NCBI GenBank assembly: GCA_963665275.2
Contig: CAXXIN010000005.1
Location: 128,745-192,744, forward strand
From: Negativicutes bacterium
GTDB taxonomy: Bacteria > Bacillota > Negativicutes > UBA1444
Direction of reading: 5' to 3'
DNA: 64,000 nt
The position numbers were made by a program, and so were the translations under genes. Each line of letters begins with the position of its first letter. The stretch's first letter is position 1. The notes beneath the pieces are model-generated. The model made no database searches. It had not been told where the DNA came from and saw only the letters and a program-made list of their open reading frames with translations. Shown one piece after another: positions 1,756-63,565 of this stretch.

Positions 1756-2892
1756 TTATTGCGGGTTATTATCCGGCGCAGCATTAAAAACAATCTGGTT
1801 ACGCCCCTGCAGCTTGGCCTGGTACAGGGCTTTGTCGGCCGTGCTGATCGCTCTGGTCGGGTTGATGTCGTTGGTGGGAGAGATGGAAGTGTAGCCGATA
1901 CTGACTGTGATTGTTGCCGCAGCTGAGGCAAAACCATGACTCATGGATTGCGCCATTACGGATTGACGCATAGCCTCCAGCACTTTTATGGCTCCATCCG
2001 AATCGGTATTCGGTAAAATGACGACAAATTCTTCGCCGCCATAGCGTGCGCAAAAATCCGCCGGACGTCGCAGTGCATTATTGATGGTAGCGGCGATGGC
2101 CTGCAGGCATTCATCGCCGGCAGTGTGCCCGTAATGGTCATTGTAGTGTTTGAAGAAGTCGAGGTCGAGCATTGCGATCGATAAGGTTGTCTGTTCGCGT
2201 CGGGCCCGGCTCCACTCACGGCAGAGGACTTCGTCACAAGTCCGGCGGTTGGGAATCTGGGTCAAGTAATCAATGGAAGCCAGTCGTTTCAGTTCATCCA
2301 GTACAGCATCGTGCTGAAGGCAGGAATAGGCTTGACAAAGGCGGCTGATGGATGACGGGGTGGCAATTCGCGGCGGACTGACTAATACAGTGGTATCTTT
2401 GGTGAGATAGGGACCGAATTTTTTGTATAAATCCTTGCCGGGACCGATATATGAACTGCCGCCGGTGATGAAAGTTGCTGCCGCGATTTTTTTGGCAATA
2501 GATGCCGGCTCCATTTCATCGTAGGCGACAACGTCATAATCAAGATGCATCAAATCGTACTTCCGCAAATGCTCCATCAAAACACGCGTTCCGGCGATAC
2601 TATTATTGATGACTAACACTGGCGTTCCGGCGGGAATCTTGCTGAGCGCGAGGAAATATTCGACAGGCGGCACAAACTCAAGCGCAACGACCTTTTCACA
2701 ACCGAAGGCTTCTTCCATCTGCTCTTTTCGGTTGACCAGACAGACATATAAATCCGCATCAGTCAGATGGCGAAAACTATCAATGGTGGCAGTTTCGATT
2801 TCGATACCGCCAGCAAGACTTTCCACCACGACGTTTTTGATTTCTTCTATATTAGCAGGATTAGCGCCGATCACGGCAATTTTTATCGACAA
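1756..2892 (-). CDS. Diguanylate cyclase (GGDEF) with uncharacterised soluble N-terminal domain
   Basis: DYLTQIPNRR, DLDFFKHYNDHYGHTAGD, RPAD I-site, RYGGEEF. Confidence 0.9.
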   Translation of the reverse strand: MSIKIAVIGANPANIEEIKNVVVESLAGGIEIETATIDSFRHLTDADLYVCLVNRKEQMEEAFGCEKVVALEFVPPVEYFLALSKIPAGTPVLVINNSIAGTRVLMEHLRKYDLMHLDYDVVAYDEMEPASIAKKIAAATFITGGSSYIGPGKDLYKKFGPYLTKDTTVLVSPPRIATPSSISRLCQAYSCLQHDAVLDELKRLASIDYLTQIPNRRTCDEVLCREWSRARREQTTLSIAMLDLDFFKHYNDHYGHTAGDECLQAIAATINNALRRPADFCARYGGEEFVVILPNTDSDGAIKVLEAMRQSVMAQSMSHGFASAAATITVSIGYTSISPTNDINPTRAISTADKALYQAKLQGRNQIVFNAAPDNNPQ

Positions 2893-2961
2893 AATGTCGC
2901 CTCCCCAGTCAGCAGATGGAGAACCTTTAAACTAATTTGACAGAAAATTCAATACTCCTGC

Positions 2962-3498
2962 TTACCGCTTCAAAGCTTTTTGTAATCTGGGCGCCAGGAA
3001 GAGGGCAACAATCAACCCGACAGAGGAGGTAAGGAGAGAGGCCGGCATATTAGAGAAAGCCACGGCAAGACTGCCGGTTACCTGCCACCAGGCGATGATA
3101 TAGCCGCCCAGTGTCCAGGTCGCTGCTGCCAGACACCCGAGTGTTGCACGGAGAATCCACCGCCCACGGGCTACAGGGGACTCTGCTTGGATATGCGGCC
3201 ATAATCCGTGGGCAATTACGCCGGCGAGGAGGCCGGCGATGCCCTTGATGAGAAACGACCAAGGCGTATAAGGGGAAAAACCCATCAATAAATCGAAAAA
3301 TGCGGACCCGATGGCTGCCGATAACCCGGCATATACACCGCCGAAGATAATGGCTACCGTGAACATGAAAGCGCTTCCGAGGTGCACCATGGCGCCGACG
3401 CCGAGAGGAATCTTGATGGATGTGGCGATCGCGCACATTCCGGCCAGCACGCCAATGGTTACCGTATCTTTGAGTTCAAGCTTGCGTTTTTTCGTCAT
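2962..3498 (-). CDS. ECF transporter S component, probably vitamin B6 (PdxU2/HmpT-like)
   Basis: VHLGSAFMF...AAIGSAFFDLLMGFSPYTPWSFLIKG; overlaps pdxK; GGAGGG RBS before ATG 3498. Confidence 0.8.
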   Translation of the reverse strand: MTKKRKLELKDTVTIGVLAGMCAIATSIKIPLGVGAMVHLGSAFMFTVAIIFGGVYAGLSAAIGSAFFDLLMGFSPYTPWSFLIKGIAGLLAGVIAHGLWPHIQAESPVARGRWILRATLGCLAAATWTLGGYIIAWWQVTGSLAVAFSNMPASLLTSSVGLIVALFLAPRLQKALKR

Positions 3499-4351
3499 GA
3501 ACATACCCTCCACTACAGAGCTGAGATAGCCGATTTTCCAGGAGAATTCCTTCACGGGCAGGAGTCCCGGCCGTGAAGGTGTCACGGACGGCGGCGGAAA
3601 CAAAGTTGCCGGCACGGCTAATGGCCATTGGCAAAGGCGCTCCCCACAATAGTTCGCCTAGCAGGACGCTGGCGAAAATATCTCCGGTTCCGGGGTATTT
3701 CGCGGGAATCAGAACGCTGGTGAATTGCCAAAATTGGTTCAGGTTGCGGTCGTAACCAAGATTGACCACTTTGCTGCCGGGAAGCGGGACGCCTGTGACA
3801 ACAACACGGGGCGGTCCCATTTCGGATAAACGGACAAGCCAGGATTGTAGGGCACCTGCATCTGGAACGATCGATTGCCAGGTTTCGCCAAGCAAAAAGC
3901 AGGCTTCGGTGTAATTGGGGGTGATGACGTCTGCTTTTTGGACCAAGGCCTTGATTTTTTCTTTCATGGTATTTGTGAAGAAAGAATAAAGCTTGCCGTC
4001 ATCGCCCATAACGGGGTCGACGAGAACCAAAGGCCGCCGGGAGGAAAAATCTTCAATAAAGCGGGAAACGATACCGATCTGTTCTTCAGAAGCAAGGAAC
4101 CCGCTATATATGCAGTCGAACCCGATACCCTCGCGCTGCCAATGCGCCGAAAAATCAGGAATGTGGCTGGTGAAATCGCAGATCGAGACGTCCGTGAAAC
4201 CACCGGGGTGGGTACTGAGAATGGCGGTGGGAAGAGGACAGACCTGGATTCCCATGCAGGACAGAACAGGCAAAATGACCGTCAGGGAACAGCGGCCGAC
4301 GCAGGAGAGGTCATGCACGGCAGCGACTTTCTTTATCTGGGCGGGAATCAT
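3476..4351 (-). CDS. pdxK: Pyridoxal/pyridoxine/pyridoxamine kinase
   Basis: VAAVHDLSCVGRCSL, PLPTAILSTH, VDPVMGDDGKLY, TPNYTEA, PGTGDIFAS. Confidence 0.88.
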   Translation of the reverse strand: MIPAQIKKVAAVHDLSCVGRCSLTVILPVLSCMGIQVCPLPTAILSTHPGGFTDVSICDFTSHIPDFSAHWQREGIGFDCIYSGFLASEEQIGIVSRFIEDFSSRRPLVLVDPVMGDDGKLYSFFTNTMKEKIKALVQKADVITPNYTEACFLLGETWQSIVPDAGALQSWLVRLSEMGPPRVVVTGVPLPGSKVVNLGYDRNLNQFWQFTSVLIPAKYPGTGDIFASVLLGELLWGAPLPMAISRAGNFVSAAVRDTFTAGTPAREGILLENRLSQLCSGGYVHDEKTQA

Positions 4352-4904: not shown

Positions 4905-6461
4905 ATGAGTGTATTGAATGTAGAAAATGTTACGCACGGATTCGGCGCCCGCCGGATACTGGAAGAAGCTTCATTTCGTTTGCTGAAGGGAGAACATGTT
5001 GGCCTGATTGGCGCGAACGGGGAAGGAAAGTCGACTTTTCTCAGCATCATCACCGGTCAGCTGCAACCGGACGCCGGCAAGGTGGAATGGTCCAACCGCG
5101 TCACGGTCGGTTATCTGGACCAACATTCCGTTCTGGCCAAAGGCAAGACGATCCGCGACATCCTGCGGACGGCCTTTCAACAGATGTTCGACTGGGAAGC
5201 GGAAATGCTGGGTATCTACGACCGGATGGCGGAAGCCGGACCGGATGAAATCGACAAAATGATGGAAGACGTTGGTGAGCTTCAGGATCTATTGGACCAC
5301 AGCGGCTTTTATACGCTGGACGCCAAGATCGAGGAGGTTGCCAACGGACTGGGACTCGGGGACATCGGACTGGATCGCGACGTCAGCGACCTGAGCGGCG
5401 GGCAGCGGACCAAGGTATTATTGACCAAGCTGTTGTTGCAGAACCCGACCATCCTGATTCTCGACGAACCGACCAACTATCTGGACGTGGAGCATATCGA
5501 GTGGCTGAAACGATACCTGACGAACTATGAAAACAGCTTTATTTTGGTATCGCATGATATTCCCTTCCTGAATGAAGTGGTCAATGTGATCTATCATGTG
5601 GAAAATACCGCTTTGACCCGTTACACTGGAAACTATGAGCAGTTCCAGCAGTTGTACACTATGAGAAAGAGCCAGGAAAATCGGGCTTTTGAGCGGCAGC
5701 AACAGGAAGTCGAACGTCTGGAAGACTTCATTGCCCGCAACAAGGCGCGCGTCGCGACACGCGGGATGGCCAACAGCCGCCAGAAGTGGCTGGACAAGAT
5801 GGAAGTGCTGGAGAAACCCCGTGAAAAACCGAAACCGACCTTCCAGTTCCGGGAAGCGCGGACACCGGGGCGCGTGATGGTGGAAGCGGAAAATTTGGTC
5901 CTCGGCTACGAAGAGGCGCTGACTCGCCCGGTGAAGTTGTTGCTGGAACGCGGGAAAAAAGTCGCGATTCGCGGCGTCAACGGCTTGGGCAAGACAACGC
6001 TGCTGAAGACGCTGCTGGGGAAAATCTCTGCGTTCGAGGGCGAAGTGAAGCTGGGCGACAACTTGTTCCCCGGTTATTTCGAGCAGGAGTCGGGCCGCGA
6101 CAATACAAATACTGCGATGGAAGAAGTATGGCAGGATTATCCGGGCATGAGCAACGGCGAAGTCCGGGCGGCGCTCGCACGCTGCGGCCTGACGAACGAG
6201 CACATTACCAGTCAGATGCAGGTGCTCAGCGGCGGCGAGAATGCCAAAGTCCGCCTGTGCAAACTGATGCTGCAGGAAGTGAACTGGCTGGTGTTGGACG
6301 AACCCACCAACCATCTGGATATTGATGCCAAAGCCGAACTGAAGCGCGCCCTGATGGAATTCAAGGGAACGATCCTGCTTGTCTCGCATGAACCGGACTT
6401 TTACGAGGACTGGGTGAGCGACATCTGGAATGTCGAAGACTGGACGAATAAAGTCGTATAA
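4905..6461 (+). CDS. ABC-F family ATP-binding protein
   Basis: Two ABC domains (GANGEGKST/LSGGQ/LDEPTN; GVNGLGKTT/LSGGE/LDEPTN), no TM segments. Confidence 0.93.
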   Translation: MSVLNVENVTHGFGARRILEEASFRLLKGEHVGLIGANGEGKSTFLSIITGQLQPDAGKVEWSNRVTVGYLDQHSVLAKGKTIRDILRTAFQQMFDWEAEMLGIYDRMAEAGPDEIDKMMEDVGELQDLLDHSGFYTLDAKIEEVANGLGLGDIGLDRDVSDLSGGQRTKVLLTKLLLQNPTILILDEPTNYLDVEHIEWLKRYLTNYENSFILVSHDIPFLNEVVNVIYHVENTALTRYTGNYEQFQQLYTMRKSQENRAFERQQQEVERLEDFIARNKARVATRGMANSRQKWLDKMEVLEKPREKPKPTFQFREARTPGRVMVEAENLVLGYEEALTRPVKLLLERGKKVAIRGVNGLGKTTLLKTLLGKISAFEGEVKLGDNLFPGYFEQESGRDNTNTAMEEVWQDYPGMSNGEVRAALARCGLTNEHITSQMQVLSGGENAKVRLCKLMLQEVNWLVLDEPTNHLDIDAKAELKRALMEFKGTILLVSHEPDFYEDWVSDIWNVEDWTNKVV

Positions 6462-6514: not shown

Positions 6515-6895
6515 ATGCCAAGAAAAGCATTTACCGCCGCCGGTGCGACTGCCGTTGGACCTTACTCGCATGCCGTGGAAGCCGGAGATTTGATCTTTTT
6601 GTCCGGACAGACCCCGATGGATTCGGCAACAGGCAAACTTGCAGAGGGCGACATCGCAGCCCAGACCGAACAGGTCTTCAAGAATCTGTTCAATGTGTTG
6701 GCATCTGCAGGACTAACTGAAGCGGATGTTGTCAAAGCGAATGTATTCCTGACGGACATGGGCAATTTTGCCGCGATGAATGCCGTCTACGCAACCAAGT
6801 TTTCCGCTCCTTATCCTGCCCGCTCGACAGTTGCGGTTGCAGGACTGCCGCTTGGTGCGCAGGTTGAAATCGAACTGATTGCCCGCAAGGGATAA
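6515..6895 (+). CDS. ridA: RidA family enamine/imine deaminase
   Basis: AVGPYSHAV, FLSGQ, FAAMNAVY, PARSTV, VEIELIA. Confidence 0.9.
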   Translation: MPRKAFTAAGATAVGPYSHAVEAGDLIFLSGQTPMDSATGKLAEGDIAAQTEQVFKNLFNVLASAGLTEADVVKANVFLTDMGNFAAMNAVYATKFSAPYPARSTVAVAGLPLGAQVEIELIARKG

Positions 6896-6906
6896 AAAAG
6901 GATAGC

Positions 6907-8085
6907 ATGAAGCAGACAAAAACGATCGCAGGGACTGCGACTTCAGGCGGCACCCAGCGATATGCAGAAAGTCATCAGGATTTGCCGTTTACACCGCTGG
7001 GATCAACCGACCTCTTGGTCAGTGCGGCCGGATTCGGCAGTTATCGGGTCGATGTGTCGGAGCGGACTCACGAACTCGCTCTGATTCATGCGTTGCGTTC
7101 GGGCATTAATCTCATTGACACCAGCGCCAACTATGCCGACGGCGGCTCGGAACGACTGATCGGCAAGGTGCTTGCCGCAATGGCGGCGCAGGGAGAAATC
7201 ACTCGCGAACAGGTGGTCGTGGTGTCCAAAGCCGGCTACCTGCAGGGCGAAAACTATCAGCTGAGTCAGGAACGCAAAGCAGCAGGGAATCCTTTCGCCG
7301 ATTTGGTTCTGGCGGGTCAGGGGCTGGAGCATTGCATCCACCCGGAATTCCTCGCCGATCAGATCACGCGGAGCCTGGCCCGCTTGAAATTGCAGAGCCT
7401 GGACTGCTGTTTGCTGCACAATCCCGAGTATTATCTGACGACCGCGAAAGCTGAAGGCGTACCTGTCGAGCAGGCTCGCAGGGAGTACTACCGCCGCATC
7501 GAGGTAGCCTTTCGCCACCTGGAGCAGGAAGTGCAGGCGGGACGGATCGTTTCCTACGGTATCAGCTCGAATACTTTTCCTGGGTCAGTCGAGGATCGCA
7601 ACTTCACTTCGCTGGCGAAGGCGTGGGAGATTGCCTGCGATATCTCTCCAGCTCATCATTTTCGGGTTATCGAATTTCCCTTGAATTTGATGGAAACTGG
7701 CGCGGTGCTGCGCGAAAATCAACCGACGGGACAAAGTCTGCTGGAATTTGCGCGGGAGAAAAACTTGGGAGTGCTGATCAATCGTCCGCTGAACGCAATC
7801 GTGGGAGACCGCCTGGTACGGCTGGCGGAGAACCATTATACCGGCGATGGCGTCACTCAGGCCCACCGTTTCCGTGACAAAGTGGCAGCGGTGGATGAGG
7901 ATTGGTCGTCCGCCGAAACGTTAAGCCAAATAGCGCTGAGGGCGATTCGCTCCACCGCAGGAATCTCAGCGGTTCTGGTCGGAATGCGCGCCGAGGAGTA
8001 TGTCGGGGATGTGCTCGCAGAGCTGCGACGCTCCTGCCCAGTCGATTCCAGAGTGGAAAGCTGGCAGAAAGTTGAAGACCTTTAA
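6907..8085 (+). CDS. Aldo/keto reductase family protein
   Basis: GFGSYR, GINLIDTSANYADGGSE, VVVSKAGY, LLHNPE. Confidence 0.85.
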   Translation: MKQTKTIAGTATSGGTQRYAESHQDLPFTPLGSTDLLVSAAGFGSYRVDVSERTHELALIHALRSGINLIDTSANYADGGSERLIGKVLAAMAAQGEITREQVVVVSKAGYLQGENYQLSQERKAAGNPFADLVLAGQGLEHCIHPEFLADQITRSLARLKLQSLDCCLLHNPEYYLTTAKAEGVPVEQARREYYRRIEVAFRHLEQEVQAGRIVSYGISSNTFPGSVEDRNFTSLAKAWEIACDISPAHHFRVIEFPLNLMETGAVLRENQPTGQSLLEFAREKNLGVLINRPLNAIVGDRLVRLAENHYTGDGVTQAHRFRDKVAAVDEDWSSAETLSQIALRAIRSTAGISAVLVGMRAEEYVGDVLAELRRSCPVDSRVESWQKVEDL

Positions 8086-56288: not shown

Positions 56289-56869
56289 GGCGTTATCACT
56301 TCCCCGTTCAGCAAATCGAAGGTAAGGGTTTTGGTGTTGCGCTGCTTGTTCTGGGACTGTGCAACTTCCAGTTTCAACAGGCCGAGCGTCTCATTGATGG
56401 ATGCTTTCGTCCTCCACCAGCGGGAGCTGACGCTGTGGGGAACTTTATTGAGTTCTGCCGCTGACAGCAGAGACTCTAATGAATGCTTTTTCAGCAGGGC
56501 GCCTGTTTCATCGTAAAAAACGATGACTTCATCACCAAAACCGGCGGAGTACCAGCTGTCGAACGTGACCACGCGCCAGCCTCCATTGGCGATAAGGGCA
56601 GTGACGGGGAGATTCTGCAGGGGCGCCTCCCATCGTTTGATCCAATCGGCGGAATCAGTTCCGGTCTGTTTGGTGTAGACAGCGCCACTGCTGGACAGGA
56701 GTGCACTTGAATGAGTAGTGGCGGTCACAATGAAGCGGGCATCCTGCGCGGCAGATTCATAAGTTGCCTCTGGTTTGGGCGGCAGCCAGGAATCAGCGTA
56801 AGCAGTCGGATTCAGGGTGGACAGGACCATGAATAGAATCCCGAGACGCAAAAAAAGCCGGAACGACAT
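56285..56869 (-). CDS. Hypothetical exported protein
   Basis: Signal peptide ending AYA-DSW; overlaps downstream gene by 4 nt. Confidence 0.65.
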   Translation of the reverse strand: MSFRLFLRLGILFMVLSTLNPTAYADSWLPPKPEATYESAAQDARFIVTATTHSSALLSSSGAVYTKQTGTDSADWIKRWEAPLQNLPVTALIANGGWRVVTFDSWYSAGFGDEVIVFYDETGALLKKHSLESLLSAAELNKVPHSVSSRWWRTKASINETLGLLKLEVAQSQNKQRNTKTLTFDLLNGEVITP

Positions 56870-56995
56870 GAATGCACCTTCTTTCCTAAGCCTTGAAAAT
56901 AAACGATGGGGAGAACTCTAATAAATCCTTTCGTGACGGGGGCCGCATTTCCTGCCTTCAGGGAACTTGAGGCTCCACGCGGACAATAATGAAAA

Positions 56996-57048
56996 CGCCC
57001 CTGCACCAGGTGGGAAGCAATGCTTCGCCATAACTGCGGCAGGGGCGG
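56996..57048 (-). terminator. Terminator-like hairpin after lipoprotein gene
   Basis: cgcccctgc...gcaggggcg with T-run on minus strand. Confidence 0.5.
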
Positions 57049-57093
57049 ATGTTCTACAGAGGGTCAGATCGCAGTTGCTTTTTGAGTGCAGGG

Positions 57094-57561
57094 TTAGTGG
57101 CGTAACGACATAATCAAGGTGCTTTTATTTTTTTTGTTATAAGCGGCGGAAACTTCGAGTTTGTCTTTTTTCCCAGAAAACATGGTCTGAGAATCATCGG
57201 AGATTTCAATTGACTTGACAAAGCCGCTGTCTTGTAATTTTTTCACGTAACTGCGATAGATTTCTTCAGTTGTGTTATCAATCATGACGCTGACTTTCTT
57301 TTGCGCTGGATCCGGTTTGGAGATCCGCTTCAATGAACCTCCTTCATATTTGGGAACTTCTGCGGGGATGTCCGTCGGCCAGGCTTCGGAGAGTTGACCC
57401 GCAGGAGATTTTGGGGACTCGGCTTGTTTGGCGGCTTCTGTAGCCGGCTTGATCTGTGCAGCTTGGATCGCCGGTGGAGTGGGTTTGTCACTGGCGCAGC
57501 CAGTGACAAAAACTAATACAAGAATCAGAAGCAGGGAATAAGTTAGCCCTCTTTCCATCAA
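57094..57561 (-). CDS. Hypothetical lipoprotein
   Basis: Lipobox VTGC, Pro/Ala linker, WPTDIPAEVPKY. Confidence 0.75.
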   Translation of the reverse strand: MMERGLTYSLLLILVLVFVTGCASDKPTPPAIQAAQIKPATEAAKQAESPKSPAGQLSEAWPTDIPAEVPKYEGGSLKRISKPDPAQKKVSVMIDNTTEEIYRSYVKKLQDSGFVKSIEISDDSQTMFSGKKDKLEVSAAYNKKNKSTLIMSLRH

Positions 57562-57746
57562 ATGGGTGCCTCCTTGAATTTGGTTTTTTTATAGAAAAAG
57601 CCATATGCAAAACAGGATCTGTTTAAGATGCATAGGGCTAATAACAGCAATATTCTACCATTAAATCCATGCGATTTCCAATACGATTTAAAGAAATGAA
57701 AATACTGAGGTGGCATGACAAACAAAATAAGAATGGACGGAATATC

Positions 57747-58616
57747 TCAGTGTTTTGAGAAAATCGCCAGCGCAAGCCAGATGAGACCGAAAGAAATCGC
57801 GTGTGTCTGCGTGAAAGGCTCGTGGTAAAGAAAGACCCCCGTGAGCAGCGCAAAAGTCGGCGACAGGTATTGTATGAAGCCGAGCAACGACAAAGGCAGG
57901 TGGTTCGCGGCGTTGGCAAACAGCACCATCGGCAGGGCAGTGACGATGCCGGCGCCGATGAACAGGATTGTTGGGATGGGGTTGGCGGGGCCAAAAACGC
58001 CGGTTCCCTGTGAGTTCAGGAACAGCAGATAGATAAGCGCCGGTGGTGCGATCAGCAGAGTCTCCAGGGTGATACCGGTGATGGGTGAAATCCCCAGCAT
58101 CTTTTTGCATAGACCATACAGGGAAAAGGTGATGGCCAGTGACAGGGCTACCCACGGGACAACGCCAAAATACAGGACGAGATTCAGGACGCCGAGGGCG
58201 GCCAGCGCGACGGCCAGATATTGCCGCTTCGAGAGTTTTTCTTTCAATAGGGCGATCCCCAGCAGAACGTTGACCAGTGGATTGATGTAATAACCCAGAC
58301 TGGTCTCGACGATGCGGTTGTCATTAACCGCCCAGATGTAGACTAGCCAGTTCAGCGAGATGAGCACTGTGGCAGCGAAGACACCCAGTATCCGACGCGG
58401 GTCCTTGCAAATGCTGCTGATTTCGCTGCGAAAGGAAGGTAGCCGCCGGGCGATGATCAAAAAAATGAGCAGAAAGAACAGAGACCAAAGGACACGGTGT
58501 GACAGGATTTCTATCGCGCCTGCCTGACGCAGGAGCTTCCAGTAGATCGGCAGGAATCCCCACATCAAATAAGCGCAGATGGCGGAGGCGATTCCTCCTG
58601 ATCGATTATTTAGCAT
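57747..58616 (-). CDS. rarD: EamA/DMT transporter RarD
   Basis: WGFLPIYW, EILSHRVLWS, SLGYYINPLVNV, GFIQYLSPT. Confidence 0.9.
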   Translation of the reverse strand: MLNNRSGGIASAICAYLMWGFLPIYWKLLRQAGAIEILSHRVLWSLFFLLIFLIIARRLPSFRSEISSICKDPRRILGVFAATVLISLNWLVYIWAVNDNRIVETSLGYYINPLVNVLLGIALLKEKLSKRQYLAVALAALGVLNLVLYFGVVPWVALSLAITFSLYGLCKKMLGISPITGITLETLLIAPPALIYLLFLNSQGTGVFGPANPIPTILFIGAGIVTALPMVLFANAANHLPLSLLGFIQYLSPTFALLTGVFLYHEPFTQTHAISFGLIWLALAIFSKH

Positions 58617-58777
58617 GCAACACCTTCCTAGCAAGATATGCCCATTGTAGAGGATCCATGTGGAAATGACAACTTGTGCCAGAAACGATTGGCAGGAATA
58701 TGAAATGAATTGACGAATGAAAATAGCACAAGGTAAAGAACCGGTATGAGGGTCCGGATTTAGGAGGTGTGACCGCA

Positions 58778-59248
58778 ATGAACAAGATAAAGTTGCTGAT
58801 CAGCTTGGCGATCTGTTTTGCGGCGGAGGGCCTCGGCGGTCTATTTACCGCTCAATCCGTCGGCGCCTGGTACCTGACGCTGCAAAAGCCGGCTTTTACT
58901 CCGCCCGGTTGGATTTTTGGACCGGTTTGGACGCTGCTGTATTTGATGATGGGGATTGCCTTATATTTAATATGGAAGAGGGCGGGTTCCGGCGCGGAGG
59001 TTCGCGGTGCGGTAACGTTGTTTGCGTTCCAGTTGCTACTTAACGTGGCCTGGTCAGCGGTTTTTTTCGGCAGGCAGTCTCCACTGGGAGGGTTGCTGAT
59101 CATTGTGGCGTTATGGCTGACGCTGGCGCTGACAATTTGGCGTTTTCGGCAGATTTCCCCCTTGGCGGCGGGACTGTTGCTACCCTACTTGGCGTGGACT
59201 TCCTTTGCCGCAGTTCTCAACTTTGCGATCTGGCGTCTGAATTCTTGA
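58778..59248 (+). CDS. tspO: TspO/MBR family protein
   Basis: WYLTLQKPAFTPPGWIFGPVWTLLY, QLLLNVAWS, LLLPYLAWTSFA. Confidence 0.92.
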   Translation: MNKIKLLISLAICFAAEGLGGLFTAQSVGAWYLTLQKPAFTPPGWIFGPVWTLLYLMMGIALYLIWKRAGSGAEVRGAVTLFAFQLLLNVAWSAVFFGRQSPLGGLLIIVALWLTLALTIWRFRQISPLAAGLLLPYLAWTSFAAVLNFAIWRLNS

Positions 59249-59333
59249 CGACTGAGGATGGAGCTTTCGCATAGCGCTTAAGTTGAGCTGTACGAGGTAA
59301 AAGGTTGACAAAACCGTGAAGGAGGACAAAGTC

Positions 59334-59855
59334 ATGTTCGGGTTTGCTGGAACCAAGTCGTTGAAATTCTGGGGATTGGCTCTAGCCTTGGTGTTCATGA
59401 CCGCGCTGCCGCTGCCGGCAGCTACTGCCGGAGAATTGTCGGTGTCGCCGGTCAGTGTGGGCACGAGTCAGGAGGCTCTGGAGTACTATCTGGATCTCGT
59501 GGAAAAACTGGATGTGACGACCGCTATCGGAAAATCGGTATTTTACTCAGGACAGGGCAACCGGAAGTTGGCTGAGCAGTTCGCGATCGCCGAAGACAAG
59601 ACGACGTTGGAGATGACTGCGGGAGGCAAATTCCTGGATGACCTGAAGCTGTTCGACCAGGGGAGTCCGTTGAAACCGGAACAGGCGACGCGCGTGTGGT
59701 CGCGGCTTTCGCAGCGTTATGCGGAGCAGGCTGCGGGGGATGTGTTTTGTTTCGTTACCGGGGCGCGGCCAACAGGCGTTTTCACAACGGTCGAACTGCC
59801 TGAACTGAAGAAGAACCGCAAAGTGGGGGCTATGTACAATGTGTCCCGACTATGA
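59334..59855 (+). CDS. Signal-peptide protein with ADP-ribosyl cyclase (CD38-like) NAD+ glycohydrolase domain
   Basis: Hydrophobic leader ending ATA; motifs VFYSG, TLEMTAGGKFLDDL, WSRLSQRYAEQAAGDV, FTTVELPEL; AAGGAGG RBS. Confidence 0.7.
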   Translation: MFGFAGTKSLKFWGLALALVFMTALPLPAATAGELSVSPVSVGTSQEALEYYLDLVEKLDVTTAIGKSVFYSGQGNRKLAEQFAIAEDKTTLEMTAGGKFLDDLKLFDQGSPLKPEQATRVWSRLSQRYAEQAAGDVFCFVTGARPTGVFTTVELPELKKNRKVGAMYNVSRL

Positions 59856-60108
59856 AATCAGCATCCCGCATTTCTACTGCCTGGAATATCGGGAAGGCGG
59901 CAGGACGATGCTGCTGGAGATCGATTTTCGTGACTCGGTGATTTATCTGGATGATACACTGGTGATGGCATGGGAAACGCCTCACGCAGGAGAAACAATT
60001 GCATCAGCTGAAAAAAAAAGAATCTTGGACAATGTGTACGAATATCTGACAGGGGAACGGGGATTTAAAAATGTGGAGTATGCCGGGTCATCGTTGTCAT
60101 GCCAATAG
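59839..60108 (+). CDS. Small acidic protein, candidate immunity protein (Imm74-like)
   Basis: Overlaps upstream gene by 17 nt; pattern Y.EG.RTM.LEID...W..PH....I...EKKRILDNV..YL. Confidence 0.55.
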   Translation: MCPDYEISIPHFYCLEYREGGRTMLLEIDFRDSVIYLDDTLVMAWETPHAGETIASAEKKRILDNVYEYLTGERGFKNVEYAGSSLSCQ

Positions 60109-60216
60109 GGCCGGACAATGGAGCACAGCGACGTTTGATTAACCTTCGTCTACCCCATGGCCCGGCCCCTATTCAATCAATTCCAGTTTCTGATCATATC
60201 GCAGTGATCACATTGA

Positions 60217-61098
60217 TTATTCGAGATAATTATTGTCGCCGCCGGCAGGAAGTACAGGCGTAAAGATGGAAATGAATTTCAGGTCATCTGTGCCGGTGAC
60301 ACGGGTGGCGTGGATGTTGCCGCGCGGGTTCACATGCACGTCGCCGGCTTTAACCGGCATCCAGACATCATTGATCAGGACCTCCCCGCTGCCGCCCATG
60401 ACAATGACGATTTCATCGGTGGTGGAGTGGAAGTGGTTCTTGATGACTGTGCCTTTACCTGCATCGCGCACCATAACGACTGCGCGGGGCGAGGTGAAGA
60501 TGGTTTTGCCGGCGATTTTGGGTTCGCCCGGCTTGGCGTTGGCGGCGTACCATTCATCATAATTGACCAGGATCGAGTTGGCGGGTGTGGAATCAACCAA
60601 CCCCAGAGGGATGACAGCGGGTTTGCCTTCTTCGAGGAAATTGGCGTCACCGCTGGCCGGGAGCACAGGCGTGAAGAGGGAAATGAACTTCAGGTCTTCC
60701 GTGCCGGTGACACGGGTGGCATGGACATTGCCACGCGGGTTCACGTGGACATCTCCGGCCTTGACCGGCGTCCATACTCCGTTGATCATGATTTCGCCTT
60801 TGCCGCCCATGACAACGACGACTTCATCGGTGGTGGAGTGGAAATGACTCTTAGCCAACGTGCCGATTCCACCATCGCGTAGCATGACAACTACGCGGGG
60901 GGAAGTGAAAATGGTGTTGCTGGCGATTTTGGGATCGTTAGGCTTGGCATTGGCAGCATACCACGCGTCATAATTGACCAGGACTGCGTCAGTGGGCGTG
61001 GAATCGACCAGACCTACGGGGATGACCGGTTGGGCAGAGCAAGTCAGCGTTCCGAGCAACAAGAGAACCACGAGTGCGAGTGAAGCTTTTTTGAACAA
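60217..61098 (-). CDS. Exported tandem cupin (internally duplicated bicupin)
   Basis: Signal peptide; two highly similar units each with HFHSTTDE...GxGE...PRGNxHAT. Confidence 0.8.
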   Translation of the reverse strand: MFKKASLALVVLLLLGTLTCSAQPVIPVGLVDSTPTDAVLVNYDAWYAANAKPNDPKIASNTIFTSPRVVVMLRDGGIGTLAKSHFHSTTDEVVVVMGGKGEIMINGVWTPVKAGDVHVNPRGNVHATRVTGTEDLKFISLFTPVLPASGDANFLEEGKPAVIPLGLVDSTPANSILVNYDEWYAANAKPGEPKIAGKTIFTSPRAVVMVRDAGKGTVIKNHFHSTTDEIVIVMGGSGEVLINDVWMPVKAGDVHVNPRGNIHATRVTGTDDLKFISIFTPVLPAGGDNNYLE

Positions 61099-61240
61099 TT
61101 TTTCTCCATCTCCCTTGTATTAAGATATTTAGTACTTCATTACCAATACTTCTGAGTTTGATTGGAGAATCCTGCCAAAAAAAATAAATTGATACAAATA
61201 TTTTGTTTTTGGATTTACTTTAGGAAAGGGGCGATGATTC

Positions 61241-61792
61241 GTGATCAGTGTTGGTGAGAAGAAAATTCACATCAAGCAGGGAGACATCACGGCAGAAACT
61301 TCGGATGCCATCGTCAATCCGGCCAATTCACAGCTGATGCATGGCGGGGGAGCTGCTCGTGCCATTGCCGTCAAGGGAGGATCTGTAATCAACGAACAGA
61401 GCCGTCGTCTGATCGAGCGGATCGGGACAGTTCCGGTGAGCAAGGCGGTGCTGACGGATGCGGGAGAGTTGCCCTGCAAATTTGTGATCCATACGGTTGG
61501 GCCGGTTTGGGGTGAAGGGGACGAAGAGGGGAAACTTCGCCGCGCGGTATGGAATGTGCTGACGCTGGCAGACCTCTATAACCTGGAGTCAGTATCGATG
61601 CCGGCTATCAGCTCGGGCGTGTTCGGGTTCCCCAAAGCGATGTGCGCGCAAATTTTGCTTGATTCAACCGTGAAGTTCCTGCAACAGCCATATGTTACGC
61701 TCGCGGATGTGGTCATGTGCAACTTTGATCATGAAACGGTGGAGATTTTCCTGGCAGCGGAGCATACATTGAAAAAAGCTAGACAGCATTAA
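61241..61792 (+). CDS. Macro domain protein (ADP-ribose binding/hydrolase)
   Basis: QGDIT, DAIVNPAN, HGGGAARAI, VIHTVGP, MPAISSGVFGFP. Confidence 0.92.
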   Translation: MISVGEKKIHIKQGDITAETSDAIVNPANSQLMHGGGAARAIAVKGGSVINEQSRRLIERIGTVPVSKAVLTDAGELPCKFVIHTVGPVWGEGDEEGKLRRAVWNVLTLADLYNLESVSMPAISSGVFGFPKAMCAQILLDSTVKFLQQPYVTLADVVMCNFDHETVEIFLAAEHTLKKARQH

Positions 61793-61837
61793 TGACTTGG
61801 CGAACGACAAAACTGCGTGATAGCTAGGAGGATCCGC

Positions 61838-63565
61838 ATGGAAAGCGAATTCTATCGAAAATGTCTACCGTTTTCCCGGGGGGATATTCCAGCTGAGCTG
61901 GTGATTCGCAATGCCCGCGTGGCCAATGTGTTTTCCCTTGAGTATGAACTGACGGACGTGGCGGTTGCGCAAGGAATTGTGGTTGGCATGGGCGAGGGAT
62001 ATGAAGGCCTCGAAGTTGTTGATGCTGCGGGAAAAGTATTGATCCCGGGAATGATTGACGGGCATATCCATATTGAAAGCACGCTGATGACGCCGGCGCG
62101 ATTTGCAGAGGCGGTGGCCATCCATGGTACTTCGGCAGTGATGGCTGATCCGCATGAAATTGCCAATGTCATGGGAATCGAAGGCGTTAAGAGCATGTGG
62201 CGGAATGCCCAGGACTTGCCGGTGGATTTCTTTTGGGGAGCTTCTTCCTGTGTACCGGCATCCGGGTTTGAGACGTGCAGGAAACCCCTCGGACCTTCGG
62301 ACTTGTCGACGCTGCTGCAAGACGGAATCTGCCAACACTTGGGCGAGATGATGAATTATCCTGCGGTGATTGGTGGCGATGCGGAGATTTGGGCCAAAAT
62401 CGCCGCTGCCCAGGGAAGACCCTTGACGGGGCACATTCCTGGTGTGGGCGGCAAAGACCTCTGCGCATACTTGCTCAGCGGGTGCAACTCGGATCATGAA
62501 ACAGTCAGTTACCTGGAGGGGTTGGAAAAGTTGCGGCGAGGCTGCTGGATTATGATGCGCTCAGGGTCGGCAGCTTCAGACTTGTCTGCGCTTGCTTCTC
62601 TGGTGATTGAAAACCCAGCCCGTTCGTCACGCTGCATGGTTGTGAGCGATGATTTGACACCGACATCGATCGCGGCGGGCGGACACATGGACGCCAAGCT
62701 GCGGCTGATGTGCCGATTGGGGATTGATCCGCTCGTTGCCTTGCGGATGGTGACATTGTCGCCAGCCGAATATTTCATACTGCCGCGACGGGGCGGAATC
62801 GCACCCGGCTGGATCGCAGACATGTCGCTTGTAGACTCGCTGGAGTCATGCCGGGTGGAGGCGGTCTGGCATAAGGGAAAGCTCGTCGCCAGTAGAGGAC
62901 GACTTTGCCAGCAAACCAGCAGGGCTTTCCCCAATGAAAAAATGATGCTGCCGCCACCCGCTTCTGCCGATGATCTTCGCGTTGCGGCAATTCCTGGCAC
63001 ACAAAAAATCCGCGTTATCGGCTGGAAACAAGGATCCTTGCTGACCGAATCTCTCTGCTTCGCTCCACGGGTTGAACAGGGCCTTGTAGTCGCTGACCCC
63101 GACAGGGACATTGCCAAATTGGTGGTGCAGGAAAGAAATCGGCGCACTGGTAAAGTAAGCGTTGGGTTCGTAAACGGCTTGGGACTCCGGTCGGGGGCTT
63201 TGGGCGCATCTATGGCTCATGATGCTCATCCTTTCATCGTGGCAGGGAGCGATGATCCATCGATTTTGCGGGCGCTAACTTGGTTGCGTGAAAATGGCGG
63301 CGGATTTGTGGCCTGCAAAGGTGAACGGGTTTTGGCTGCATTACAGCTCCCCATTGGAGGATTGATGAGTGAGGCGAACCTTGCAGAGGTGGCGCAGGCT
63401 TTGGACAAAGTCGATAGGGCGGCAGCGGGACTGGGAATAACGGGCGCTCATCCCTGTATGGCATTATCCTTCCTGTCCTTATCCGTTATTCCTTCCCTGA
63501 AATTGACGGATCAGGGTTATGTGGACATTGGAAGAGGAGGGGGACAGGAACTGTTTGTGGATTGA
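61838..63565 (+). CDS. ade: Adenine deaminase
   Basis: PGMIDGHIHIES, DPHEIANV, GEMMNYPAV, SDHE, AHDAH, LSVIPSLKLTD. Confidence 0.9.
   Translation: MESEFYRKCLPFSRGDIPAELVIRNARVANVFSLEYELTDVAVAQGIVVGMGEGYEGLEVVDAAGKVLIPGMIDGHIHIESTLMTPARFAEAVAIHGTSAVMADPHEIANVMGIEGVKSMWRNAQDLPVDFFWGASSCVPASGFETCRKPLGPSDLSTLLQDGICQHLGEMMNYPAVIGGDAEIWAKIAAAQGRPLTGHIPGVGGKDLCAYLLSGCNSDHETVSYLEGLEKLRRGCWIMMRSGSAASDLSALASLVIENPARSSRCMVVSDDLTPTSIAAGGHMDAKLRLMCRLGIDPLVALRMVTLSPAEYFILPRRGGIAPGWIADMSLVDSLESCRVEAVWHKGKLVASRGRLCQQTSRAFPNEKMMLPPPASADDLRVAAIPGTQKIRVIGWKQGSLLTESLCFAPRVEQGLVVADPDRDIAKLVVQERNRRTGKVSVGFVNGLGLRSGALGASMAHDAHPFIVAGSDDPSILRALTWLRENGGGFVACKGERVLAALQLPIGGLMSEANLAEVAQALDKVDRAAAGLGITGAHPCMALSFLSLSVIPSLKLTDQGYVDIGRGGGQELFVD

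Follow-up and report, generated by a model that had tools for sequence, protein, structure and literature searches.

What might an enzyme of the CD38 family do in a bacterium when it carries an export leader, has no toxin-delivery scaffold and is encoded directly before a candidate immunity gene? The question is raised by two overlapping genes at positions 59334 to 60108 of the window analysed here, a stretch of 64,000 nucleotides (nt) of contig CAXXIN010000005.1 (assembly GCA_963665275.2) from a Negativicutes bacterium. On balance, we think it probable that the pair encodes a Sec-exported NAD(P)+ glycohydrolase with the CD38/Tac1 fold, together with a cytoplasmic inhibitor of the Imm74 family. 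An initial annotation, made from the letters of the window, had described two open reading frames (ORFs) of 173 and 89 aa with a 17-nt overlap, and both were recovered at the same coordinates; the motifs that it quoted (VFYSG, TLEMTAGGKFLDDL, WSRLSQRYAEQAAGDV and GVFTTVELPEL) are all present in the translation of the first. The features of the pair are as follows.

59318–59325, forward strand: Shine-Dalgarno sequence GAAGGAGG, read from the sequence, with the enzyme's ATG 8 nt downstream
59334–59855, forward strand: enzyme gene (ORF A), 173 aa
59334–59426, forward strand: putative Sec-type leader, residues 1–31, from a heuristic scan and the per-residue confidence (pLDDT) of the AlphaFold2 (AF2) model
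59427–59465, forward strand: variable linker, residues 32–44, from low pLDDT and alignment variability
59466–59855, forward strand: catalytic domain of predicted ADP-ribosyl cyclase fold, residues 45–173, with the stop codon, from PF02267, a PDB profile search, AF2 and Foldseek
Within the catalytic domain, forward strand: FYSG, residues 70–73; E93, 59610–59612; D102, W122 and S126; E154, 59793–59795
59839–60108, forward strand: Imm74-like inhibitor gene (ORF B), 89 aa, no leader

The ATG at 59334 is favoured as the start of the enzyme gene over a GTG at 59316 because the homologues share an MF.F.G N-terminus. The overlap of the two genes (59839–59855) suggests translational coupling, and an identical 17-nt overlap was found in all nine related loci. 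Because this overlap recurs and the ratio of non-synonymous to synonymous substitution (dN/dS) is low, we regard the two as real genes rather than chance ORFs. The GC content of the pair, 53.4%, is that of its flanks.

Judged by its sequence and its modelled structure, the 173-aa protein is a member of the ADP-ribosyl cyclase (ARC) family with a complete active site of the Tac1/CD38 type, and it is predicted to be active. The Pfam family PF02267 matches residues 50–162 with 30.4 bits (cut-off 25; E 3.3e-7), and in a frame search of the whole genome the same family gave 29 bits with neighbouring segments; an NCBIfam scan of both proteins returned no matches. A profile built from 75 relatives of the enzyme and searched against the PDB found Tac1 of Streptococcus parasanguinis (9ouf, E 5.7e-18) and ARCtox of Pantoea (9ro8, E 3.5e-17), followed by porcine and bovine CD38 (about 1e-7) and Aplysia cyclase (about 1e-6). 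Similarly, the AF2 model (mean pLDDT 87.7, with blocks of residues 41–170 at 93–99 and residues 1–40 at 49–66) was matched by Foldseek to 9ouf (E 2e-7) and 9ro8 (E 6e-7), and then to CD38, CD157 and Aplysia cyclase. There were 68 such matches at E<=0.001, in keeping with the two-lobed core of the ARC fold, with template-modelling scores of 0.5–0.67 that are lowered because the leader, of some 40 residues, is unstructured in the model. Thus, every sequence and fold criterion that we tested places the protein in the ARC family, as the initial annotation had claimed on the strength of CD38 motifs. Its motif-by-motif alignment was also reproduced when HMMER aligned the profile with Tac1, Pantoea ARCtox and the CD38 proteins of pig and cattle: VFYSG falls on VFWS, TLEMT on TLE(N/D)T, W..LS.RYAE on W..LS.RFAE and VE on VE. 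The CD38 disulfide cysteines, which it had reported missing, are indeed absent, and only one Cys remains in the mature enzyme.

Along the chain of Tac1, the three aligned residues (Glu, Trp and Glu) lie at offsets of 24 and 57, which is the spacing of E516, W540 and E573 as numbered in the published account of that toxin (PMC12356396). Therefore, E93 is equated with Tac1 E516 and CD38 E146, and E154 with Tac1 E573 and CD38 E226; W122 corresponds to Tac1 W540. By this equivalence E154, in TVELP, is the essential catalytic Glu, and its counterpart is the VE of Tac1, ARCtox and both mammalian CD38 proteins; W122 and S126 correspond to the Trp and Ser of the nucleotide pocket. E93, D102, W122, S126 and E154 are invariant in all 24 rows of the alignment of relatives (A1). 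The product expected from this active site is linear ADP-ribose rather than cyclic ADP-ribose (cADPR), because E93 is retained: the corresponding E516 of Tac1 drives hydrolysis of the cADPR intermediate, whereas Nac1, which bears Ala at this position, releases cADPR. The initial annotation had left room for a cADPR producer, and here the retained Glu points instead to ADP-ribose.

The 89-aa partner is likely a member of an Imm74-like family, going by its sequence. Its only Pfam match is to PF15603 (Imm74), at E 2.4e-5 and 24.8 bits, which is below the cut-off of 27.1. The same family is matched at E<=0.01 by 18 of 25 aligned homologues of the partner (best E 2.3e-6) and no other family appears; a precomputed PF15603 label exists for 3 of 36 homologues. 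The protein is acidic, as had been noted (pI 4.5; 16 D+E against 8 K+R). Its proposed role as an immunity protein gains from modelling of the complex, in which the enzyme and the partner are predicted to bind with a median ipSAE interface score of 0.90 over three runs, where the best control gave 0.00. Of 80 solved complexes, 58 attain the mark that this score passes, as do 2 of 110 mismatched pairs, a rough calibration since our own alignments were used. At least 97% of contacts are common to the three runs, with a partner pLDDT of at least 84 (85.7 in the model of the partner that was used for Foldseek). On the enzyme, the predicted interface comprises residues 72–75, 77–78, 93, 101–102, 105–109, 114–119, 122–123, 126, 145–149 and 152–153, which make up the catalytic cleft, and on the partner residues 8–13 and 29–34, including the invariant IPHFY (9–13) and DFR. 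It holds 8 of the 15 invariant residues of the inhibitor and 10 of the 25 invariant residues of the enzyme. A search for solved relatives of the partner gave no sequence match at E<=10 and no Foldseek match at E<=0.001, and the score is therefore unlikely to be a memory of a solved complex. The inhibitor is thus predicted by these models to sit in the catalytic cleft of the enzyme, in line with the candidate immunity function first suggested for it.

The N-terminus of the enzyme has the layout of a Sec signal peptide, with K8 and K11 in the n-region, a hydrophobic core of about 13 residues (WGLALALVFMTAL) and a c-region that is rich in P and leads to A-T-A ahead of G32; cleavage would be expected after A31, and there is no lipobox Cys. 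By a heuristic scan of our own, run on 47 clade members (P0001 and P0003–P0048, with P0049–P0063 left out), every one of the 47 combines an n-region of net positive charge with an uncharged stretch of 16–36 residues and a hydrophobic 10-mer with a Kyte-Doolittle (KD) value of at least 2.26, and 46 of the 47 have a small-x-small site at positions 28–39. The linker that follows (residues 32–44) is variable in alignment A1 and of low confidence in the AF2 model, and the mature enzyme, of about 142 aa, would consist of the catalytic core and this 13-residue linker. Pfam gives PF02267 alone in the 173-aa protein, with no LXG, PAAR, VgrG, RHS or filamentous haemagglutinin carrier domain. The earlier picture of a Sec-type leader in place of a delivery scaffold is therefore upheld in the clade members scanned. 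The inhibitor has no leader and is predicted to be cytoplasmic.

The genome (G000; 92.6% complete) encodes one Omp85 protein and two secretins, and we take the host to be diderm because these are present; LpxC was not found in the genome and so was not used. In a diderm host, the leader would bring the enzyme at least to the periplasm, and export by Sec is what the sequence of the N-terminus suggests.

NAD depletion is a common outcome of both defence and toxin–antitoxin systems. The pair might thus be imagined as an intracellular toxin–antitoxin or abortive-infection module that depletes NAD, with an N-terminus that is an inner-membrane anchor or irrelevant, and the tight, overlapping layout of a toxin gene followed by an inhibitor gene would fit. 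We consider this very improbable, since a PADLOC scan matched neither protein, the N-terminus has the n/h/c layout and small-x-small sites of a leader, and the hydrophobic h-region, at some 13–15 residues, is short for a membrane span. Furthermore, a signal anchor with a positive n-region would still put the catalytic domain outside the cytoplasm, and the genomic context, described below, is syntenic and non-mobile.

In the mechanism that we propose for the exported enzyme, both proteins would be co-translated from their overlapping reading frames, and the inhibitor would capture any enzyme that folds before export. Its IPHFY and DFRD segments would insert in the catalytic cleft, across E93, D102, W122 and S126 and beside E154. 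The leader would route the enzyme through SecYEG to the periplasm of this diderm Firmicute, where it may remain within the envelope or travel beyond it. Once free of inhibitor, the enzyme would hydrolyse NAD+ and NADP+ to nicotinamide and ADP-ribose.

How does this arrangement compare with known ARC systems? In Tac1–Tci1 of S. parasanguinis, an LXG toxin of the type VII secretion system (T7SSb) with an ADP-ribosyl cyclase domain is neutralized by Tci1, a protein of the Imm74 family (PDB 9ouf; Colautti, Kim and Whitney, JBC 2025, PMC12356396), and the placing of Tci1 in the Tac1 cleft is an AlphaFold3 prediction in that account. The pair described here has the same predicted fold, the same active-site residues, a likely member of the same immunity family directly downstream and the same predicted binding in the cleft. 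Unlike Tac1, it has no LXG domain, Lap partners or T7SS context and carries only a Sec-type leader; its TLE loop has 5 additional residues and retains a CD38-like DD; and it is vertically inherited and single-copy rather than a polymorphic toxin locus. Imm74 was named as the primary immunity protein of Tox-ARC by Zhang et al. (2012; Biol Direct 7:18, PMC3482391), and a second solved relative is PAAR-ARCtox of Pantoea ananatis (PDB 9ro8; PMC12605009). The domain family and, probably, its usual immunity partner match those of the pair, but Tox-ARC and PAAR-ARCtox are described in these accounts as the tips of large polymorphic toxins (RHS, FilH, LXG or PAAR). The initial annotation had described bacterial domains of this kind as toxin tips on such carriers. 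This stands for the proteins just named but is too narrow as a general picture, since a signal-peptide route was listed in 2012 (PMC3482391) and Nac1 was described in 2025 (PMC12356396).

Nac1 of Actinophytocola oryzae, a ‘non-toxic ADP-ribosyl cyclase’, offers a parallel for the leader. As presented in PMC12356396, it has Ala at the position of Tac1 E516, makes cADPR, carries a predicted Sec signal peptide, is listed without an immunity gene and does not need one for production in E. coli. Like Nac1, the enzyme studied here is a small ARC protein with a predicted Sec signal peptide and no link to the machinery of polymorphic toxins. It might therefore be read as a signalling enzyme of the same kind, an exported cyclase that makes cADPR (or NAADP) outside the cytoplasm, as has been proposed for Nac1. 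This seems improbable to us, however, because E93 is invariant in all 24 relatives whereas Nac1 has the cADPR-releasing Ala, and because an Imm74-like partner is present in nine of nine loci, whereas Nac enzymes are defined, as far as the 2025 account goes, by the lack of an immunity gene and by causing no harm in E. coli. Of the features of Nac, the enzyme therefore has the Sec signal peptide, by our heuristic, and neither the absence of an immunity gene nor a non-Glu residue at the E516 position. Similarly, for the features of polymorphic toxins, we found neither a carrier domain nor signs of polymorphism (alternative tips, orphan cassettes, mobility or fast evolution). The pair thus combines the immunity partner and the predicted chemistry of the Tac type with export of the Nac type, fixed in a lineage, and is a new arrangement of known families. 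Our search of the literature found no description of a leader-plus-core-only ARC protein fixed in a lineage, and the supplementary tables of the 2012 and 2025 papers may list such proteins.

With human CD38 and Aplysia cyclase, the enzyme shares the core of the fold and the catalytic motifs, and its catalytic domain would likewise face away from the cytoplasm. Unlike CD38, it has a core of about 130 aa rather than about 250 aa, no disulfides, a leader that is probably cleaved instead of a type II anchor, and a dedicated protein inhibitor. The logic of an exported NADase kept in check by a small cytoplasmic inhibitor may also be likened to that of SPN (Nga)–IFS in Streptococcus pyogenes, where SPN, an NAD+ glycohydrolase, is secreted and IFS, its 1:1 competitive inhibitor in the cytoplasm, is essential for viability (PMC1298937). 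Neither of our two proteins matched the SPN or IFS family in the Pfam scan, and by sequence SPN–IFS is an analogue of the pair and not a relative. The fold of SPN is of another class, and its delivery into host cells depends on streptolysin O.

The distribution of the enzyme bears on what it may do after export. A full HMMER scan of cluster representatives gave 814 homologues at E<=0.001, in which the whole 173-aa clade counts as one representative. The best 150 of the 814 are 104–6434 aa long, and the long ones match C-terminally, for example at residues 2247–2397 of 2405 or 6291–6403 of 6434. Among ten longer relatives scanned for domains, one has three S-layer-homology (SLH) domains, one has haemagglutinin repeats (Fil_haemagg_2), one has RHS repeats and one has a PT-TG domain at 23.2 bits, just below the cut-off of 23.5. 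In a quick tree of 85 domain sequences, whose root is arbitrary, 13 leader-only proteins fall on one side of a branch with an SH-aLRT support of 81, and the SLH-ARC protein P0100 is sister to the leader-only clade with a support of 92.

P0100 (385 aa) is the closest relative outside the clade, with 64% identity over the domain. Its three SLH domains precede the ARC domain and further sequence lies C-terminal to it, so that it looks like a wall-anchored ARC protein and not a toxin tip.

The nine named loci are all from metagenome-assembled genomes of Negativicutes, labelled Veillonellaceae, Sporomusaceae or Negativicutes. Of the 13 genomes of the window's order (which in this collection is the same as its family), 10 contain the enzyme, as do 7 of the 8 of high quality; the window's own genome has a single ARC copy. 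In the rest of the class, only 4 of 388 sampled genomes have a match, and these are weak (E 3.7e-4 to 5.7e-10), lie in frames of 189–3589 aa and represent distant carrier-borne or cassette forms only. Among the three negative genomes of the order, G012, from the same genus as the window, is the only one with a true empty site, an intact EamA–TspO–TraX–Ade locus without the pair. The absences in G010 and G011 are not reliable, as contigs break at the locus in both, and in G011 a piece of Imm74 lies at a contig edge.

Pairwise dN/dS was computed among 8 genomes, with L007 and L010 omitted for the runs of N in their copies. The ratios, which are rough since dS values exceed 1, are about 0.17 for the enzyme and about 0.14 for the partner, and 0.11–0.15 for three flanking genes. 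The pair is under purifying selection, like the genes that flank it, and is vertically inherited. Upstream synteny is kept, with RarD/EamA and usually TspO. In the window, the TspO/MBR gene (58769–59248, forward strand) lies 85 nt upstream of the pair on the same strand, and the RarD/EamA transporter gene (57747–58778, reverse strand) is divergent, its start overlapping that of TspO. TspO is not at the upstream position in L003, L006 and L008.

These data allow two roles for the exported enzyme to be weighed. The first is that of a diffusible or vesicle-borne NADase toxin, antibacterial or anti-eukaryote, which would leave by Sec and a secretin-type route and harm neighbours without the Imm74 partner, in the manner of a bacteriocin. 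All characterized close relatives are toxins, and Tac1 and Pantoea ARCtox, as reported for each, deplete NAD(P)+ and are neutralized by adjacent immunity proteins. Both glutamates and the immunity gene are retained here, a signal-peptide (‘T2SS’, type II secretion system) route is listed for Tox-ARC by Zhang et al. (2012; PMC3482391), the genome has two secretins, and G012, lacking the pair at the syntenic site, offers a possible sensitive target. Against this, the mature protein of some 142 aa contains no receptor-binding or translocation domain, which leaves entry into a target cytoplasm unexplained. Furthermore, the gene occurs once in the genome, and neither orphan cassettes nor a carrier accompany it; its inheritance is vertical, with dN/dS like that of the housekeeping flanks and no sign of diversification; and its position is syntenic and not mobile, unlike that of a transposase-flanked ARC cassette in genome G029. 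We consider such a weapon unlikely, though far from negligible.

The second role is that of a polymorphic-toxin NADase and its immunity protein domesticated into a housekeeping-like module of a single order of diderm Firmicutes, a periplasmic or surface ‘bacterial CD38’. External NAD(P)+ might then be turned over for nicotinamide and purine salvage, or serve as a cue for lysed neighbours, and the former immunity protein would survive solely as a cytoplasmic safety catch. In this specific form, the proposal is one that we hold tentatively, as a real possibility that falls short of being probable. We have a weak preference for extracytoplasmic NAD(P)+ turnover (nicotinamide salvage or sensing) by a domesticated toxin–immunity pair over a delivered weapon, because the mature protein is the core only and the pair behaves as a resident gene.

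Several points weigh against an exported enzyme with a role in NAD(P)+ turnover. An enzyme that is fully exported by Sec would not obviously need an inhibitor, and a true weapon would also keep one. The inhibitor is under the Imm74 cut-off of Pfam, the leader call rests on a heuristic and the N-terminus may instead be an uncleaved membrane anchor, and the dN/dS ratios are rough, as stated. The genes downstream of the pair are variable (TraX, Macro or others), with no conserved pathway context. Finally, the salvage idea is without specific support. Across the class, 295 of 401 sampled genomes likewise gave no NadA, and almost none of these has the enzyme; the three ARC-negative genomes of the order are without NadA too; and a QRPTase-like gene is present while PnuC was not found.

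With regard to NAD metabolism in the order itself, 12 of its 13 genomes gave no match to NadA (quinolinate synthase). The window's own genome contains genes for nicotinate phosphoribosyltransferase (NAPRTase) and for isochorismatase-family proteins, as well as a QRPTase_C (NadC-like) frame at 93 bits, and a search of it for PnuC found none. A link to NAD auxotrophy was considered as specific support for salvage and rejected, because the lack of NadA is common across the class.

Downstream of the pair in the window, an opposite-strand bicupin gene is followed by a Macro gene (61241–61792, forward strand), whose product is ADP-ribose-binding or deacetylase-like, and by an adenine deaminase gene (61817–63565, forward strand), which matches TIGR01178 above the cut-off. 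These neighbours hint at ADP-ribose or purine handling, and in L006 and L008 the Macro gene (6766–7314) starts 9 nt after the Imm74 stop. As pathway partners, however, Macro and adenine deaminase were rejected, for Macro follows the pair in only 3 of 10 loci (the window, L006 and L008). L007 and L009 have unrelated genes downstream, and in five loci (L002, L003, L004, L005 and L010) the pair is followed by a TraX gene that overlaps the end of the Imm74 gene by 4 nt. In G012, this TraX gene lies between TspO and Ade. The TraX products are membrane proteins of 230–237 aa (PF05857, E 1.5e-40 for the copy in L005), and the genes are placed as follows.

L002, 4453–5145: TraX gene
L003, 1311–2003: TraX gene
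L004, 3782–4495: TraX gene
L005, 6757–7449: TraX gene
L010, 6176–6868: TraX gene
L027, about 2830–3520, reverse strand: TraX gene

The bicupin gene (60217–61098, reverse strand) encodes a secreted protein of 293 aa, with its own leader and two near-identical Cupin_2 halves. A gene for a secreted calcineurin-like phosphoesterase, on the opposite strand, precedes the adenine deaminase gene.

A scan of 58600–60760 found no forward-strand promoter-like site, including between TspO and the NADase gene, and a terminator scan found no convincing terminator downstream of the pair. An Rfam scan of 56500–62000 at E<=1 gave no NAD or other riboswitch and one lncRNA match at chance level. In one RNA run (X20, contigs), only the opposite-strand bicupin gene is covered (60222–60937), which is uninformative on expression of the pair.

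Why does a locus of this kind matter? Bacterial ARC enzymes were characterized only in 2025, as delivered toxins with immunity proteins on the one hand and as exported, harmless makers of cADPR without them on the other. The present pair is a compact case of the retention of a toxin and its immunity protein after loss of the delivery arm, and a candidate extracytoplasmic NADase in wastewater anaerobes. If the pair has indeed been domesticated, it would be a bacterial parallel to the proposed origin of animal CD38 as a toxin turned ectoenzyme, and the split between Tac (toxic, with immunity) and Nac (exported, with none) would become a continuum. There is also a caution for surveys: such loci may be misread as immunity-free, because the partner is under the Imm74 cut-off and only a small minority of its homologues are labelled PF15603.

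Other ARC genes were seen outside the leader-only clade. In another family of Negativicutes, locus L028 (G029:C1, 1840–2583, reverse strand) contains a leaderless, Tac1-like ARC ORF of 169 aa with a 75-aa ORF downstream and, on each side, one of two almost identical transposase-like genes of some 290 aa; it is one of the four weak matches outside the order and looks like an orphan toxin–immunity cassette. P0054–P0062, from other metagenomes, are ARC proteins of about 105–124 aa that begin at the catalytic domain and have neither a leader nor a carrier. Orphan cassettes, truncated gene calls and contig ends are all possible explanations for them. Finally, near-identical DNA is present in wastewater metagenomes of several studies, and in the two runs examined, one from wastewater and one bovine, 29 of 30 bins were covered at 90–99% likeness.

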